Assembly (NCBI GenBank): GCA_965267575.1
Contig: OZ254086.1
Span: 1,120,001-1,184,000 of the forward strand
Length of the DNA stretch: 64,000 bases
Origin: Calditrichales bacterium
GTDB taxonomy: Bacteria; Calditrichota; Calditrichia; Calditrichales; J004
Direction: 5' to 3'
The translations under genes and the position numbers were made by a program. The notes beneath the pieces were generated by a model that worked only from the letters and a program-made list of their open reading frames with translations, did not search any database and had not been told where the DNA came from. Each line of letters starts with the position of its first letter. Positions within the stretch are counted from its first letter, which is position 1. Below are positions 904-6,500 of the stretch, one piece after another.

Positions 904-1137
904 ATGGCAAAAGGAACGCCCAAAAATAAGAAATCTGCATCTAACGTCCAAAGCTTCACTTTTGGCCGCCGCAACCTGATGCTGCTTGGTTTAGGTATAC
1001 TGGTCATTGCAATAGGATTTGTTTTAATGGCCCAGCCTCCTGTGGATGGCTTTTTATCGCGCACACTGGCCCCTATTCTTCTGGTGGTTGCCTACCTGGT
1101 CATCATCCCGATTTCAATCCTTGCGAAAAATAAATGA
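904..1137 (+). CDS. DUF3098-like small membrane protein
   Basis: 77 aa, two TM helices, FGRRNLMLLGLGILVIAIGFVLM...TLAPILLVVAY pattern; TTGCTT-N17-TATATT upstream (838-866). Confidence 0.75.
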   Translation: MAKGTPKNKKSASNVQSFTFGRRNLMLLGLGILVIAIGFVLMAQPPVDGFLSRTLAPILLVVAYLVIIPISILAKNK

Positions 1138-1143
1138 CAGGTA

Positions 1144-1172
1144 TTGAAAAAAAATAAAAAGGTCAGTATCTT
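1144..1172 (+). promoter_or_regulatory. sigma70-type promoter of the tRNA-Val locus
   Basis: TTGAAA (1144-1149)-N17-TATCTT (1167-1172), about 35 nt upstream of the first tRNA-like copy. Confidence 0.6.
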
Positions 1173-1207
1173 AAAAGTCTTGATTTTGAGTAAATAGCTC
1201 AATACCT

Positions 1208-1259
1208 GGGCGCTTAGCTCAGCTGGTCTAGAGCATCCCGATTTACATCGGGAGGGTCA
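1208..1259 (+). pseudogene. Truncated tRNA-Val-like copy: 5' half with the anticodon arm replaced by a palindrome, no T-arm
   Basis: 1208-1235 is identical to the tRNA-Val 5' part (GGGCGCTTAGCTCAGCTGGTCTAGAGCA), followed by TCCCGAT-TTAC-ATCGGGA, GGGTCA, then unrelated sequence. Confidence 0.85.
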
Positions 1260-1284
1260 TTGACCGGCAAAAAACGAAAATCTT

Positions 1285-1359
1285 GGGCGCTTAGCTCAGC
1301 TGGTCTAGAGCACCTGCCTTACAAGCAGGGGGTCACTGGTTCGAATCCAGTAGCGCCCA
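1285..1359 (+). tRNA. trnV: tRNA-Val (anticodon TAC), CCA not encoded
   Basis: Cloverleaf: acceptor GGGCGCT/AGCGCCC, D-arm GCTC/GAGC, anticodon stem CCTGC/GCAGG with loop CT-TAC-AA, T-arm ACTGG-TTCGAAT-CCAGT, discriminator A. Confidence 0.96.
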
Positions 1360-1363
1360 CACC

Positions 1364-1394
1364 AAACCCCGGTCCAATGGTGCCGGGGTTTTTT
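1364..1394 (+). terminator. Intrinsic terminator after tRNA-Val (repeated at 1715-1745 and 2066-2096)
   Basis: AAACCCCGG...CCGGGGTTTTTT hairpin with U-tract. Confidence 0.75.
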
Positions 1395-1408
1395 ATTTTG
1401 GAGGATGT

Positions 1409-1657
1409 ATGTACTGGACCTACGTCATATACTCCCCATCTCATGATATCTTCTATATCGGCCAAACCAATAATCTGCAAGACCGCCTGCTGCGCCACAA
1501 CCAAAACAGAAATAAATACACAAAAGGCAAAGGACCCTGGCAGCTCTTTTTCTCTAAAGCCTTTGATACACGAGCGGAAGCAGTGCAACTGGAGCAAAAA
1601 CTAAAACGCTACAAAAACAAAGACTACCTAAAGGAGCGCTTGGCTGACCTGGTCTAG
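1409..1657 (+). CDS. GIY-YIG nuclease family protein (small, UPF0213/YhbQ-like), copy 1
   Basis: 82 aa: YTYVI...FYIGQTNNLQDRLLRHN...KYTKGKGPW...EAVQLEQKLK; RBS GGAGG upstream. Confidence 0.9.
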   Translation: MYWTYVIYSPSHDIFYIGQTNNLQDRLLRHNQNRNKYTKGKGPWQLFFSKAFDTRAEAVQLEQKLKRYKNKDYLKERLADLV

Positions 1658-1710
1658 GGCATCCCGATTACTATCGGGAGGGCCACCTGGTTCGAATCCA
1701 GTAGCGCCCA
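1634..1710 (+). pseudogene. Pseudo-tRNA-Val copy with a palindromic anticodon-arm replacement
   Basis: GAGCGCTTGGCTGACCTGGTCTAGGGCA-TCCCGAT-TACT-ATCGGGA-GGGCCACCTGGTTCGAATCCAGTAGCGCCCA; mismatches in the acceptor, D and T stems. Confidence 0.85.
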
Positions 1711-1759
1711 CACCAAACCCCGGTCAAATGGTGCCGGGGTTTTTTAGTTTGGAGGATGT

Positions 1760-2008
1760 ATGTACTGGACCTACGTCATATACTCCCCTTCTCATGATAT
1801 CTTCTACATCGGCCAAACCAATAATCTGCAAGACCGCCTGCTGCGCCACAACCAAAACAGAAATAAATACACAAAAGGCAAAGGACCCTGGCAGCTCTTT
1901 TTCTCAAAAGCCTTTGATACACGAGCGGAAGCAGTGCAACTGGAGCAAAAACTAAAACGCTACAAAAACAAAGACTACCTGAAGGAGCGCTTGGCTGAGC
2001 TGGTCTAG
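1760..2008 (+). CDS. GIY-YIG nuclease family protein, copy 2
   Basis: Identical to copy 1 except D->E near the C-terminus (LADLV vs LAELV). Confidence 0.9.
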   Translation: MYWTYVIYSPSHDIFYIGQTNNLQDRLLRHNQNRNKYTKGKGPWQLFFSKAFDTRAEAVQLEQKLKRYKNKDYLKERLAELV

Positions 2009-2061
2009 GGCATCCCGATTACTAACGGGAGGGCCACCTGGTTCGAATCCAGTAGCGCCCA
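1985..2061 (+). pseudogene. Pseudo-tRNA-Val copy with a palindromic anticodon-arm replacement (one mismatch)
   Basis: Same as 1634-1710 but the hairpin reads TCCCGATTACTAACGGGA. Confidence 0.85.
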
Positions 2062-2110
2062 CACCAAACCCCGGTCCAATGGTGCCGGGGTTTTTTATTT
2101 TGGAGGATGT

Positions 2111-2446
2111 ATGTACTGGACCTACTTCATAAACTCCCCATCTCATGATATCTTCTACATCGGCCAAACCAATAATCTGCAAGACCGCTTGCTGCGCCAC
2201 AACCAAAACAGAAATAAATACACAAAGGGCAAAGGACTGCGGCAATTGTACTTCTCCAAAGCTTTCGGAAACTGCGGAGATGTGATACGGCATGAAAGAA
2301 AATTGAAATACTACTATCCACATTTGATTTTTGCTTCTTTACATTTTTATAATTTGACGTTTCATCTTTTACATATAGCATCAGCTTATGCGCTTAACTT
2401 TTCTCGCTGTCTTATATTTTATAATGGGCAGTTTTTTGAATGTTGA
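2111..2446 (+). pseudogene. Degenerate GIY-YIG copy 3
   Basis: Near-identical to copies 1 and 2 up to YTKGKG, diverged through ERKLK, then reads into unrelated AT-rich sequence overlapping the next gene start; no pseudo-tRNA tail. Confidence 0.7.
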
Positions 2447-5400
2447 AGCATTCAATGATATTAAAATTGAACGGCTCCCACTTGATGATCCTTTGAAGGG
2501 AGCATTCACATTAGACATTCTTCAGGATAAGTATGGGTTTTTATGGTTTGCTACCGATAGGGGGCTTGTCCGATATAATGGGTACAACTTTCACATTTAC
2601 AAAAACCAAGTGCAAGACACTACCTCATTGTCGTCTAATCACGTGCTTTCGCTTTTTGAGGACAATTCAGGTTCGATTTGGGCCGGAACTTTGATTCACG
2701 GCTTGAACAGGTTAGACCGCACGACTGGAAAGTTTATCCGATATGTCGGAAAGCGGGATACCAGCACAACCAACCCCTATGAATTGGGCGCTAACCAGAT
2801 TTTAGATATATATGAAGACAGCCAAAACAATTTTTGGGTCGGTACTACATTAGGTTTATTGCGCCTGGAAAAGGGAAAATATAAAAAATTTCTACCGGAC
2901 AATGAAAACCCGAACTCTATCAGCGAAGGGCCCGTTACGTGTGTACATGAAGATAGCCGCGGAAGGCTTTGGATTGGTACAAATAGCGGCTTAAATCTTT
3001 ACGATAGAAAACAAAATAAATTCTCCTACTTTGATAACGCCAGCATGACCCGCCTACAAAAGGCCATTAACTGTATGACCGAGGACAGGAAGGGCAATTT
3101 ATGGATAGGGACATATGATGGATTGATCAGGTTTAATCCGGAAACGAAAACATTTAAGATTTTCAGACAGGAACCTGAAAACTCACAAGGTCTCAACAAT
3201 AATGTAATTTGGGACATACAGGAAGTCCGCTCCGGGCAATTATGGATAGGTACAGAGGGCGGTGGCGTTAATATCCTAAATCCAAAAACAAATGTATTCA
3301 GCTATGTAAAACATGACCCCGAAGATCCATATAGTCTTAACTCAGATTATGTCACCGCCATTTACGAAGACCGTACAGGGATAATATGGATTGGCACGGG
3401 AAGCATGTGGGGACGTGCCAAAGGCAAGGGTTTTGGTATTAATAAGTATGATCCGGACAAAAAACAATTTCATAACATTTCTATTAATCCTTTCTATACG
3501 GACTCGACGGTTTATATCGATGCGTATTCAGTATTAGTAGACCATTTAGGAGTTTTGTGGATTGGAACTAACGGCCAGGGCCTTATTAGCTATGATGAAT
3601 CAACGGACGAATATAACAGATATCTTCACGATCCTTCTGACGAATCCACCATCAGCGAAAACGGTATTATGGGTATGTATGAAGACAAAGCCGGCAAGCT
3701 TTGGTTTGGAACCTGGAACAGTGGATTAAATCTGTTTAATCGAGAAACAAAATCTTTCAGGCGCTATCAACATGATCCCAACGATCCTTTAAGCATCAGC
3801 TCCAATCGTATAAACGAAATGCTCGAAGATAGTAAGGGGCGTTTCTGGATTGCGACTTTTTATGGAGGGTTGAATCTATTTGATCGTGAAAATGACACAT
3901 TCAGACATTACGTTCGAAATCCTCAAGACCCAAATAGCATCAGTACAAACCAAACCAGCAGGTTGTTCGAGGATCATTTTGGTAACTTGTGGATATCTAC
4001 CTGGAGCGGAGGCTTAAATAAATTTAATTTTGAGGAAAACAAATTTGTCCGCTTTATGCACGACCCTAAAGACCCGAAAAGCATCAGCCACAATATTGTA
4101 AGAACAGTGGTTGAAGATGAAACATATGATCTTTGGGTAGCTACTGCGGGTGGACTTAATAAATTTAGTCGCTCTACAGGGACATTTAATTGTATTACAG
4201 AAAAAGACGGTCTTTTAAATAACCAAATTTCAGGTATCCTAAAAGATGACAGTGGCAGTTTATGGATTCAGGCGCGATATGGAATAAGCCGTTTTAATCC
4301 TACAACCCAAAAAATAAAGAATTATGACACTAATGACGGTTTAGTCAACTCCGCCTATTTAAGTGGGCCACCATATAAAAACAAAGCAGGAGAAATGTTT
4401 TTTCCCGGAAGATCAGGTGTGGACTTTTTTCATCCTGACAGCATAAAAGACAACCCTCATATTCCACCGATCGTCATAACTCGTCTGACCAAATATAACA
4501 GTGAAGTCAAAAAAAATGAACCACTCATTATTGATGATTTTTCTGGGAAAAAATCTCTCTTTCTTACGTATAAAGACCGCATATTGAATTTCGAGTTTGC
4601 TGCTCTTAACTACAGAAATCCTGCAAAAAACCAATATGCCTATAAACTCGATGGCTTTAACGATTCCTGGATTCAGCTTGGTACAAAACACGATGTCACC
4701 TTTACTGACCTTTCTCCGGGAAATTATACGCTGCATGTCCGCGGCTCCAACAACGACGGCGTTTGGAACATGGAGGGCACATCCCTGGAGATATATATTG
4801 CCCCGCCCTGGTGGCGCACCTACTGGGCATACGGCCTCTATTTTGCCATTGTGCTGGCCGCGCTGTTGAGTATCCGGGCCTATGAACTAAAAAGGCAGCG
4901 CCTTAAATACGATCTGAAAATGGAGCATGAACAGGCTGAAACCCTGAAAGAACTGGATCGGATGAAGTCACGCTTCTTTGCCTCCATCTCGCATGAATTC
5001 CGCACACCGCTCACGCTGATCAGCGGGCCCGTTGAACGGCTGCTTAAAAAGGGCCGGGCAGATCAGATAAAAGATCTAAAGCGTATTCAAAGTAATGCCG
5101 GCCAAATGGACAAGCTGGTAAAAATGTATCTTGAGCTGTCAAAACTGGAAAGCGGCAAGCTTGTTCTGCATCGGGAAAAATGCGAACTCATCTCGCTGCT
5201 GAAGATCGTGCTGGCCGCTTTTGAATCCCGGGCTGAAGCTGAGAATAAAAATCTGCGCTTTAAGACAGATCTTGCCCGTGCCATGGGGCAGGTTGATAAA
5301 GATATGTTTGCGCTAATCATGAACAACCTGCTTTCCAACGCTTTTAAATTCACCGCTGAAAACGGGGAGATTGAAGTATCCGCGCAGCTGAAACCCGGGG

Positions 5401-6500
5401 CAACTGAAAAAGAGAAAAAAGACCATATTGAAATAGCCGTTAAGGATAGCGGTATTGGCATAGCGCCGGAGCAGCAGCAGCGTATTTTCGAAATGTATTT
5501 TCAGGTGGACAATGAAATTAACAAGCGCATCAGCGGAACAGGCATTGGGCTGGCCATGGTTAAGGAGTTGGTGGAAATGCATGAAGGAGAGCTGGCATTA
5601 GAAAGCACGCCCGGCAGGGGTAGCAGATTCAGTATTGTATTGCCCATCATGGAAGCACAAAAGCAAAGCGGAATAGCCGAAGCGTTGGAAGAAAAACCAT
5701 CGCTGAGCGAGAAAGAACAATCAGACATTTCAACAGAACAATCCACACAACCGCGTATTTTGATTGTAGAAGATAACCATCAAATGCTGGATTATATTAA
5801 GAGCCATCTGGAAGAAAAATATAAAACACAAAGCGCTTCCGATGGCCGCAGAGGATTCGAAAAAGCGCTGAAATTTAATCCACAGCTTATCGTAAGTGAT
5901 GTGATGATGCCGGAAATGGACGGCTTTGAGTTTTGCGCCAGACTGAAACAGGATTTCCGTACCAGCCATATCCCGGTTATTCTGCTTACGGCAAAAATCC
6001 AGGAACAGGATATGTATAAAGGACTGGAAACCGGCGCGGATACCTACATCACAAAGCCCTTTAAAGCCCGGGAACTGCTGATTCGAATCGGCAACCTTAT
6101 AGAAAACAGGCAAAGGCTGCACAAAAAGTTTCTTACCGAAAAACATGTTGATTTTGGCGAAATAAATATTACATCCGCGGATCAACGCTTTTTGGAGCAT
6201 TGCCGCCGGGTTGTAGAAACCCACCTTTCCGACGAAGACTTTACAGTTGATGCCTTTGCCAAAGAAGTGGCTTTTAGCCGCGTGCAGCTGCACCGCAAAC
6301 TCAACGCTTTGACCGGTCTTTCCGCTTCGGCATTTATCAAAACGATGCGTCTTAAGAAAGCGGCTATACTTCTTAAATCCGGTTTTGGTAACATTGCACA
6401 GGTAGCTTTCGAAGTGGGTTTCTCCAACCCCTCCCATTTTTCCAGTGCCTTTAAAAAGATGTATGCAATGGCTCCTTCCGATTACGTCCGCAAAGGCTAA
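2388..6500 (+). CDS. Hybrid two-component system sensor kinase/response regulator (beta-propeller repeats, Y_Y_Y, HisKA, HATPase, REC, AraC HTH)
   Basis: Repeated ED..G.LWIGT motifs; YAYKLDGFNDSW...PGNYTLHVRGSNNDGVW; TM helix; SISHEFRTPLTLI; NLLSNAFKFT; GTGIGL; SDVMMPEMDG; VAFEVGFSNPSHFS. Confidence 0.95.
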   Translation: MRLTFLAVLYFIMGSFLNVEAFNDIKIERLPLDDPLKGAFTLDILQDKYGFLWFATDRGLVRYNGYNFHIYKNQVQDTTSLSSNHVLSLFEDNSGSIWAGTLIHGLNRLDRTTGKFIRYVGKRDTSTTNPYELGANQILDIYEDSQNNFWVGTTLGLLRLEKGKYKKFLPDNENPNSISEGPVTCVHEDSRGRLWIGTNSGLNLYDRKQNKFSYFDNASMTRLQKAINCMTEDRKGNLWIGTYDGLIRFNPETKTFKIFRQEPENSQGLNNNVIWDIQEVRSGQLWIGTEGGGVNILNPKTNVFSYVKHDPEDPYSLNSDYVTAIYEDRTGIIWIGTGSMWGRAKGKGFGINKYDPDKKQFHNISINPFYTDSTVYIDAYSVLVDHLGVLWIGTNGQGLISYDESTDEYNRYLHDPSDESTISENGIMGMYEDKAGKLWFGTWNSGLNLFNRETKSFRRYQHDPNDPLSISSNRINEMLEDSKGRFWIATFYGGLNLFDRENDTFRHYVRNPQDPNSISTNQTSRLFEDHFGNLWISTWSGGLNKFNFEENKFVRFMHDPKDPKSISHNIVRTVVEDETYDLWVATAGGLNKFSRSTGTFNCITEKDGLLNNQISGILKDDSGSLWIQARYGISRFNPTTQKIKNYDTNDGLVNSAYLSGPPYKNKAGEMFFPGRSGVDFFHPDSIKDNPHIPPIVITRLTKYNSEVKKNEPLIIDDFSGKKSLFLTYKDRILNFEFAALNYRNPAKNQYAYKLDGFNDSWIQLGTKHDVTFTDLSPGNYTLHVRGSNNDGVWNMEGTSLEIYIAPPWWRTYWAYGLYFAIVLAALLSIRAYELKRQRLKYDLKMEHEQAETLKELDRMKSRFFASISHEFRTPLTLISGPVERLLKKGRADQIKDLKRIQSNAGQMDKLVKMYLELSKLESGKLVLHREKCELISLLKIVLAAFESRAEAENKNLRFKTDLARAMGQVDKDMFALIMNNLLSNAFKFTAENGEIEVSAQLKPGATEKEKKDHIEIAVKDSGIGIAPEQQQRIFEMYFQVDNEINKRISGTGIGLAMVKELVEMHEGELALESTPGRGSRFSIVLPIMEAQKQSGIAEALEEKPSLSEKEQSDISTEQSTQPRILIVEDNHQMLDYIKSHLEEKYKTQSASDGRRGFEKALKFNPQLIVSDVMMPEMDGFEFCARLKQDFRTSHIPVILLTAKIQEQDMYKGLETGADTYITKPFKARELLIRIGNLIENRQRLHKKFLTEKHVDFGEINITSADQRFLEHCRRVVETHLSDEDFTVDAFAKEVAFSRVQLHRKLNALTGLSASAFIKTMRLKKAAILLKSGFGNIAQVAFEVGFSNPSHFSSAFKKMYAMAPSDYVRKG

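Follow-up and report, generated by a model that had tools for sequence, protein, structure and literature searches.

The window analysed here is a stretch of 64,000 nucleotides from the genome of a Calditrichales bacterium (contig OZ254086.1, positions 1,120,001 to 1,184,000 of the forward strand; coordinates are those of the window unless another source is named). Its subject is a tRNA-Val(TAC) gene that is followed by a short array of GIY-YIG nuclease genes and accompanied by three partial copies of itself, each with a hairpin in place of the anticodon arm. The functional tRNA gene lies at 1285..1360 on the + strand, is called by ARAGORN and scores 73.7 bits against the Rfam tRNA model. A tandem array at 1336..2237 (+) has a period of 351 bp, 2.6 copies and 97% matches (Tandem Repeats Finder; self-BLAST). 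Each 351-bp unit, referred to below as the cassette, contains in order the 3' part of the tRNA, a terminator, a GIY-YIG gene, a tRNA-like 5' part and the hairpin. The terminator-like element, a hairpin followed by a T run (1364..1391, and again at 1715-1742 and 2066-2093, + strand), lies 12 nt before the nuclease start codon. An 82-aa GIY-YIG open reading frame (ORF) is the sole gene of the unit, and no integrase gene, whether tyrosine or serine, is present in it.

The first two nuclease genes, called as ORFs at 1409..1657 (Pfam PF01541, E 1.7e-17) and 1760..2008 on the + strand, each encode 82 aa and differ from one another in five codons, with four synonymous changes and one replacement. The Pfam match spans residues 1-71 of the 82-aa protein, which is a single domain with no separate DNA-binding domain; no NCBIfam family scores over its cut-off. 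Among 20 relatives, residues Y5, Y16, and H30 do not vary and R26 and E62 hardly do, and all five are present in the gene 1 product. Thus, of the features of Seg-type homing enzymes, the protein has the conserved Tyr, Tyr, Arg, His, and Glu and lacks the separate DNA-binding domain for a long double-stranded site. The genome contains this GIY-YIG subfamily in three copies only, all at the tRNA-Val locus. The third (2111..2446, +; ORF, Pfam E 4.6e-9) is degenerate: it has 76% identity over 68 aa (self-BLAST), lacks the family-conserved residues P43, W44, and A58, and differs from gene 1 by 31 replacement versus 10 synonymous codon changes. It tracks the repeat to ~2237 and then diverges, and no pseudo-tRNA follows it.

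The three hairpin-bearing copies are distributed on both sides of the functional tRNA. The upstream pseudo-copy (the 'A unit', 1207..1284, +) opens with tRNA positions 1-28 and continues with the hairpin, 6 nt of variable loop and a 25-nt unrelated spacer; its first part, at 1208-1235, is identical to positions 1-28 of the real tRNA at 28 of 28 nucleotides. Pseudo-tRNA 1 (1634..1711, +) has a diverged 5' half, the hairpin and a 3' half, which agrees fully with the real tRNA over its final 25 nt (1687-1711). Pseudo-tRNA 2 (1985..2062, +) was located by ARAGORN and by alignment of the four tRNA copies. The diverged 5'-half copy is shared with the nuclease ORF: its last 8 codons and the TAG stop fall inside this half, and the hairpin starts 5 nt later.

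The native anticodon arm, CCTGC-CTTACAA-GCAGG, occupies 17 nt at 1312-1328 of the functional gene, and in the four-copy alignment the hairpin is substituted for it at identical tRNA positions in all three pseudo-copies. Copy 1 (1236..1253) reads TCCCGAT-TTAC-ATCGGGA, with a 7-bp stem and the loop TTAC; copy 2 (1662..1679) reads TCCCGAT-TACT-ATCGGGA, with the same stem length and the loop TACT; copy 3 (2013..2030) has one letter changed, which breaks the sixth pair and leaves a 5-bp stem with an 8-nt loop. The original prediction, a reading of this stretch that had reported an 18-nt hairpin in place of the 17-nt anticodon arm in three copies, was therefore correct in its coordinates, with two perfect palindromes and a third in which one pair is broken. 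When folded as single-stranded DNA, hairpins 1, 2, and 3 have predicted energies of -8.6, -10.1, and -7.8 kcal/mol, versus -5.3 kcal/mol for the native arm, and copy 1 has a fold z of -6.6. The prediction had also drawn attention to the triplet TAC in the loop. This triplet is indeed present in all three copies in the window, but among relatives it is found in just 5 of 66 distinct hairpin arms of the Val/Pro-flank type.

The perfect palindrome pattern has two matches in the window, where none is expected, and 0 of 100 shuffles reach two. Across the genome (4.73 Mb) there are three matches, namely the two in the window and an unrelated site at 3525162. Dispersal of the motif across this genome is ruled out, as the looser form TCCCGA..TCGGGA occurs at 11 sites in all: the two perfect copies in the window, one relic beside a tRNA-Asp gene, two sites in rRNA operons, three repeats of a GTCAT type and three others. 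A simple chimera, in which the arm of another tRNA had been copied into the Val gene, and which the original prediction had named as its own refutation, was likewise considered and rejected, since the stem is absent from all 42 ordinary tRNAs of the genome (0 of 42). A BLAST search for partial copies near other tRNAs of the genome detected, at the threshold used, the Val locus alone.

The tRNA-Asp relic lies at C1:941825-941880, 55-110 nt past tRNA-Asp(GTC) (941695-941769), and has no nuclease gene. It combines a remnant of the D arm with the hairpin TCCCGAC-CC-GTCGGGA, which takes the position of the anticodon arm, and with a 3' part of tRNA-Asp that has decayed; it is a second cassette end in the genome, and a dead one. 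The three GTCAT-type repeats (C1:2579720, 3524397, and 3525882) are composed of GTCAT, a TCCCGAC..GATCGGGA hairpin and ATCC; they combine the stem core of the tRNA hairpin with an upstream motif that is typical of published repeats of the Ssn nucleases, which are considered below.

Do the hairpin-bearing copies act as tRNAs? The pseudo-tRNA at 1985-2061 scores 27 bits against the Rfam tRNA model, under the gathering score of 29, and the copy at 1634-1711 has no match, so that neither pseudo-tRNA has a cloverleaf that reaches the gathering score; the upstream copy at 1207-1284 is without the T arm and the 3' strand of the acceptor. ARAGORN assigns no amino acid to the pseudo-copies. By these measures all three hairpin-bearing copies are non-functional as tRNAs. 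ARAGORN does give a four-base anticodon, 'tact', for 1985-2062, and each of the three hairpins can also be drawn with 5 bp in the stem and 8 nt in the loop; one might therefore suppose that the copies at 1634-1711 and 1985-2062 work as tRNAs whose anticodon loop has eight bases, serving as four-base-anticodon frameshift suppressors. We regard this as next to impossible given the covariance scores (27 bits or no match versus 73.7 bits for the real gene), the mismatches at acceptor pair 2-71 and in the D stem, and the use of the 5' half as coding sequence. Moreover, two of the copies are predicted to fold with a 7-bp stem and a 4-nt loop, and the size and sequence of the loop vary freely among relatives.

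A broader form of this idea is that the pseudo-tRNA is transcribed and acts as RNA, either as a processing or stabilising 3' end of the nuclease mRNA or as a tRNA mimic. The pseudo-copies are on the tRNA strand and directly 3' of the ORF, those in the window keep most of the cloverleaf (one mismatch in the acceptor stem and an intact T arm), and the upstream units of one relative are complete enough for ARAGORN to call them as tRNAs. Such a role is nevertheless very unlikely. Both pseudo-tRNAs are below the Rfam threshold, upstream units have no 3' half, and in most relatives just 5-22 nt of the 5' half is left, which makes an acceptor stem impossible. In addition, a terminator stands ahead of each nuclease gene, and published relatives of this type of enzyme did not bind RNA (PMC11893778). 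The tRNA mimic that had been suggested for the locus fares no better: the copies fail the tRNA covariance model, the 5' strand of the acceptor is lost in most relatives, and loop length is variable, with hairpins of 14-23 nt.

More can be learned from the same arrangement in other genomes. A survey of 41 related genomes (the window's own included; 29 loci fetched) found homologues of the nuclease in 33 of them. ARAGORN reports a tRNA in 21 of the 29 fetched loci, which is Val-TAC in the closest genomes and Asp, Glu, or Ser in others. A wider scan, which used one genome per species and a query alignment of 7 close sequences, gave 479 relatives, of which the best 80 were analysed; these come from Calditrichota, Bacteroidota, Ignavibacteriota, Chlorobiota, Nitrospirota, WOR-3, and a Dehalococcoidales genome. 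Within these best 80 of 479, a hairpin-free tRNA on the same strand ends no more than 200 nt upstream of 57 of the 68 nuclease genes with enough upstream flank (the window gene counted). The neighbouring tRNAs represent 12 anticodon identities: Val, Pro (two), His, Lys, Phe, Asp, Ser, Leu, Ala, and Asn, together with Glu among near relatives. In other genera and at other tRNAs the anticodon arm is replaced by the same stem, with differing loops, and hairpin, nuclease gene and tRNA gene are tightly linked.

The layout around the working tRNA is recurrent. On the 5' side there are zero to thirteen upstream units, each with tRNA positions 1-27, the hairpin, and positions 45 to ~65; on the 3' side are the nuclease gene, a D-arm remnant, the hairpin, and tRNA positions 44/46-76, and this nuclease unit is often repeated further. 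The hairpin replaces exactly tRNA positions 27/28 to 43/45. In most relatives the 5' half of the tRNA before it is reduced to the 5-22 nt mentioned above. At some loci the hairpin stands in place of the T loop, or forms the terminator stem ahead of the nuclease start codon. The longest array of upstream units, in a Saprospiraceae genome (L073, 59-1385), has 13 tandem pseudo-tRNA-Pro units of 102 nt, and an Ignavibacteriaceae genome (L112, 1393-3243) has at least five tandem nuclease units of 330 nt after tRNA-Val. A genome of the same family but another genus (L037, ~1395-1500) has an upstream pseudo-tRNA-Val that keeps both acceptor strands, carries the hairpin in place of the anticodon arm and has its T loop deleted; here a whole tRNA gene has been disabled at two arms, and the working copy is found 60 nt beyond.

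Hairpins of the form TCCCG..CGGGA occur 113 times in the 227,324 nt of the relatives' loci, while 50 mononucleotide shuffles give a mean of 0.78 and a maximum of 3. Beside related nuclease genes, in anticodon or T arms, the stem core is either TCCCGA..TCGGGA or the doubly compensated CTCCGA..TCGGAG. Among the 73 genes with enough downstream flank, the hairpin near the stop codon is of the TCCCGA type in 35 and of the CTCCGA type in 16, and 22 have neither strict pattern. When the CCGA..TCGG core alone is required, so that the outer pairs can be counted, 128 hairpins are obtained; TC..GA makes up the two outer pairs in 65 of them and CT..AG in 22, with a single mixed case. At the seventh pair, C-G and T-A occur 36 times each, and whole hairpins are 14-23 nt long with varied loops. 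(This varying half-site spacing makes binding of a dimer to the double-stranded palindrome unlikely.) Random decay, which the original prediction had argued against, does not account for a stem that recurs beside related GIY-YIG genes in many genera and tRNA identities and whose outer pairs covary.

Taken by tRNA, the stem types are mixed: Val loci carry both, and one 19-nt hairpin is identical at Val and Lys loci, with flanks that match the local tRNA in each. Taken by protein they are not, as 16 of the 17 CTCCGA cases fall inside one 28-row clade of the nuclease tree, a clade that includes both Val and Lys loci. Stem type would thus seem to track the nuclease tree more than the tRNA, with host relatedness as a confounding factor.

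Could the hairpin be a passive scar, derived from the end of an ancestral cassette and copied by duplication and gene conversion with no present function of its own? Fragments of this kind do exist. Hairpins without a nuclease gene are present in arrays at 7 of 29 tRNA-Val loci of relatives, the tRNA-Asp relic is found in the same genome as the window, and the hairpin copies within a locus are mostly identical or nearly so, as would be expected from concerted evolution. What renders a scar unlikely is the behaviour of the stem. Its six outer pairs are either constant or changed on both sides, while the loops, the flanks and the protein (to ~45% identity) diverge, and the hairpin recurs in place of the T loop, as the terminator stem and at tRNA genes of many identities, where its flanks match the local gene. 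The constancy or compensation of the stem and its reappearance at new places both point to selection; judging by this covariation, what is selected is a structure whose stem sequence is fixed.

Close relatives of the genome indicate how the cassette is gained and lost. In three genomes of the same family, a tRNA-Val that is 100% identical to the one in the window lies behind the same upstream gene, with neither hairpin nor nuclease gene; a fourth is interrupted by a contig end at this point. The 29 tRNA-Val loci of relatives comprise 7 with a nuclease gene, the 7 with hairpin fragments only, and 15 with neither. In 39 of 53 cases, the sequence that follows the hairpin matches positions 44-76 of the real tRNA next to it without a difference. 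In one same-family relative (L002), it is the pseudo-copy that has the T stem native to the family, whereas the T stem of the working tRNA is foreign; the cassette there supplied the 3' part of the tRNA that is now in use. In two other genomes (L064 1402-1776 and L068 1402-1776) the nuclease units are 96% identical, with the L064 copy in a setting that is not a tRNA gene. The stretch that the two share begins in the anticodon loop of a tRNA-Pro and ends just past the nuclease gene, and its flank is inverted relative to a third genome, which looks like a rearrangement with breakage at the anticodon arm.

SegB-type homing enzymes, which are larger than the 82-aa nuclease, provide the model for another explanation. 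Here a homing enzyme would cut the native tRNA gene at or near the anticodon arm, and the hairpin would be an uncuttable version that shields the pseudo-copies of the cassette. It is known that free-standing GIY-YIG homing enzymes target tRNA genes, and the site of T4 SegB includes a conserved T-arm motif (PMC2330249); furthermore, the substitution removes exactly one tRNA arm, and occupied and empty sites coexist among relatives. Yet the working tRNA that lies beside the nuclease gene keeps its native arm and is 100% identical to that of cassette-free genomes, so it would be cut too. In addition, any disruption would suffice for protection, but one stem, with its compensated variants, has been kept over 12 anticodon identities and several phyla, and the protein is an 82-aa catalytic domain with no further DNA-binding domain. 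We therefore consider protection distinctly unlikely, and of the two nuclease-related functions that the original prediction had offered for the palindrome, recognition or protection, the second is the one that the conserved stem and the intact adjacent tRNA speak against.

The first function is the better supported. We hold, with modest confidence, that the hairpin is probably the nuclease's own recognition hairpin and that the cassette probably spreads and amplifies by recombination through tRNA homology. The model for this is the Ssn family (Chenal et al. 2025, PMC11893778), whose ~94-aa single-domain GIY-YIG proteins bind hairpin repeats that flank their own genes and cut single-stranded DNA a few bases upstream; the sequence of the stem is needed, and the identity of the loop is not. 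The likeness to such a nuclease and its cognate repeats (Ssn/NTS pairs) has several sides. In both, the protein has ~80-95 aa and is a lone GIY-YIG domain to which no DNA-binding domain is added; in both the gene is flanked by a short hairpin-forming inverted repeat, which here is found 5 nt past each stop codon and also within the upstream unit; and in both the stem is conserved and the loop free, and the hairpin variant goes with the nuclease lineage (PMC11893778). This association and analogy make recognition the best supported role for the hairpin, as had been predicted, with the support confined to these two lines.

By this account, the three tRNA fragments with hairpins would be junction pieces of a small selfish cassette at tRNA-Val(TAC), whose unit consists of the copy of tRNA positions 44-76, the terminator, the gene for the 82-aa single-domain GIY-YIG protein, a short D-arm remnant with the stop codon, and the hairpin. 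The nuclease would read the hairpin as a stem-loop in single-stranded DNA, and the cut would fall a few bases away, within tRNA-homologous sequence, as in the Ssn/NTS pairs. Breaks by the hairpin would then be followed by recombination through the conserved tRNA sequence, which could generate the direct repeats of the tRNA 3' part, the tandem arrays and the upstream 5'-half copies, and could allow spread to new genomes and tRNA types. Throughout, one intact tRNA would always be retained or rebuilt. The cassette would thus move by recombination and not by transposition; classical transposition was set aside, as the GIY-YIG domain is a hydrolase.

Several points weigh against recognition of the hairpin by the nuclease. 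Binding and cutting at the hairpin, and single-stranded DNA as the substrate, are all things that we infer for this nuclease family by analogy. The protein is just 25-28% identical to two mini GIY-YIG proteins of its own genome that have repeats of the Ssn kind (GTCAT plus hairpin), and, with UPF0213 as its nearest solved relative, it may lie outside the Ssn clade (cd10448). The published degenerate pattern for the Ssn motif has 0 full matches at the locus, where its palindrome part alone is found, in two of the three copies (at 1663 and 2014). This pattern is an insensitive test, however, since it likewise failed to pick up the repeats of the two other nuclease genes. A nuclease that requires the hairpin cannot cut a cassette-free tRNA gene, so this account does not cover the first entry into an empty site. 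The 22 of 73 genes without a strict-type hairpin near the stop codon are exceptions, although several have variants or decayed copies, and the hairpin fragments at 7 of 29 tRNA-Val loci persist without a nuclease gene. The clustering of stem types on the protein tree is confounded by the relatedness of the hosts. The local anticodon, which the prediction had proposed to look for in the loops at other loci, is over-represented in the hairpins: it is present in 23 of 90, versus 9.4 expected from other anticodons. This excess is modest and partly trivial, but it is not predicted for a hairpin that is purely cassette-borne; the loop may have been converted by the tRNA gene next to it. Finally, four public runs of one sample give the stretch as contigs only, which break at the repeat, and offer no joints, circles or evidence of copy number; no RNA run is listed among those that contain it.

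There are also clear differences from the Ssn systems. The hairpins here replace an arm within copies of a tRNA gene and the nuclease gene lies directly after the tRNA, whereas Ssn repeats are dispersed and intergenic (PMC11893778); the present system is known from sequence alone, its protein looks closer to UPF0213, and the degree of identity and incomplete pattern match given above separate it further. The best solved relative is UPF0213 BH0048 for both kinds of protein, with E 1.3e-6 for this nuclease and 6e-4 for the other (Ssn-style) protein. The two further mini GIY-YIG genes of the genome are at C1:4526721-4526939 (L141 1501-1719, +) and C1:4256049-4256273 (L144 1501-1725, -). Each lies amid its own GTCAT-plus-hairpin repeats, with 16 and 40 copies genome-wide that are clustered at the genes, in the layout published for Ssn and its repeats (SRM). 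The word tRNA has 0 occurrences in the main text of PMC11893778.

The cassette can also be set beside other elements that use tRNA genes or hairpins. Like phage T4 SegB, it has a free-standing GIY-YIG gene among tRNA genes, tRNA sequence as a landing or recognition site, and a co-inherited flanking tRNA (PMC2330249). SegB, however, is encoded by a phage and cuts double-stranded DNA, at a site of 27 bp (PMC2330249), whereas here a bare catalytic domain is encoded on the chromosome and the conserved hairpin and pseudo-tRNA junctions belong to the unit. The IS200/IS605 elements and the REP-associated tyrosine transposases (cited in PMC11893778) share with the cassette a small enzyme and a cognate DNA hairpin that marks the ends of an element and multiplies in the genome. 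Those enzymes are HUH transposases with covalent intermediates, whereas GIY-YIG enzymes only hydrolyse; movement of the cassette would therefore have to rely on host recombination. The direct repeat of ~31-33 nt of the tRNA 3' part that flanks the insert recalls yet another class. Genomic islands and prophages of the integrase type insert into tRNA genes and preserve a working tRNA by bringing their own copy of its 3' part. The cassette, in contrast, lacks an integrase, measures 351 bp in all with a nuclease as its one gene, forms tandem arrays and has a hairpin at the junction.

Phage and plasmid databases contain few homologues: there is one among 50,697 phage records, with 35% identity and no annotated tRNA beside it, and there are two among 72,556 plasmid records. 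In the literature, no description was found of nuclease cassettes with hairpin-substituted pseudo-tRNAs; the supplementary homologue lists of PMC11893778 may include members. A wider proposal is that these loci represent widespread, undescribed mini mobile elements, in which a hairpin-guided GIY-YIG nuclease of 80-90 aa installs its own recognition hairpin in place of a tRNA arm, uses conserved tRNA genes as landing pads, and hops between tRNA identities and phyla while leaving a working tRNA behind. We put this forward tentatively, as a possibility about which we are more doubtful than confident.

If the hairpin is the site of the nuclease, the locus joins the hairpin-guided mini GIY-YIG nucleases (Ssn, 2025) to tRNA genes as targets of selfish DNA. 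It would then show how an element that has neither integrase nor transposase could persist and move, supply single-stranded DNA tools with many natural enzyme-hairpin pairs, and account for a recurrent oddity of annotation in Bacteroidota-related phyla, where pseudo-tRNAs, tRNAs of unknown type and tandem tRNA fragments are found by genes for a 'GIY-YIG nuclease family protein'. If the wider proposal is true, each nuclease lineage with its stem variant (TCCCGA, CTCCGA, and others) would be part of a natural library of small cutters of single-stranded DNA that are specific for both sequence and structure. In practical terms, such loci break assemblies and mislead tRNA finders; the nuclease loci of many relatives end at contig edges.

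The surroundings of the array in the window are as follows. Upstream, an ORF of 77 aa (904..1137, +) encodes a small membrane protein with a weak match to Pfam DUF3098 (21.1 bits, under the cut-off of 25). The tRNA-Val of relatives is likewise preceded by the end of this gene, which serves as a syntenic anchor. Between this ORF and the first pseudo-copy is a promoter-like site (1144..1172, +; consensus scan, 9 of 12 positions). In cassette-free relatives, an A-rich stretch and then a TATCTT-like box, read by eye, stand before the intact tRNA, and the site at 1144..1172 is presumably the original tRNA promoter. Since the promoter-like stretch of the empty sites lies before the upstream pseudo-copy in the window, it is suggested that this copy (1207-1284) retains the original 5' half of the tRNA. 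At the other end of the array, a 1370-aa ORF (2388-6500, +) lies directly 3' of the decayed third nuclease copy, and the AT-rich stretch before it (2324-2381) contains two promoter-like sites.

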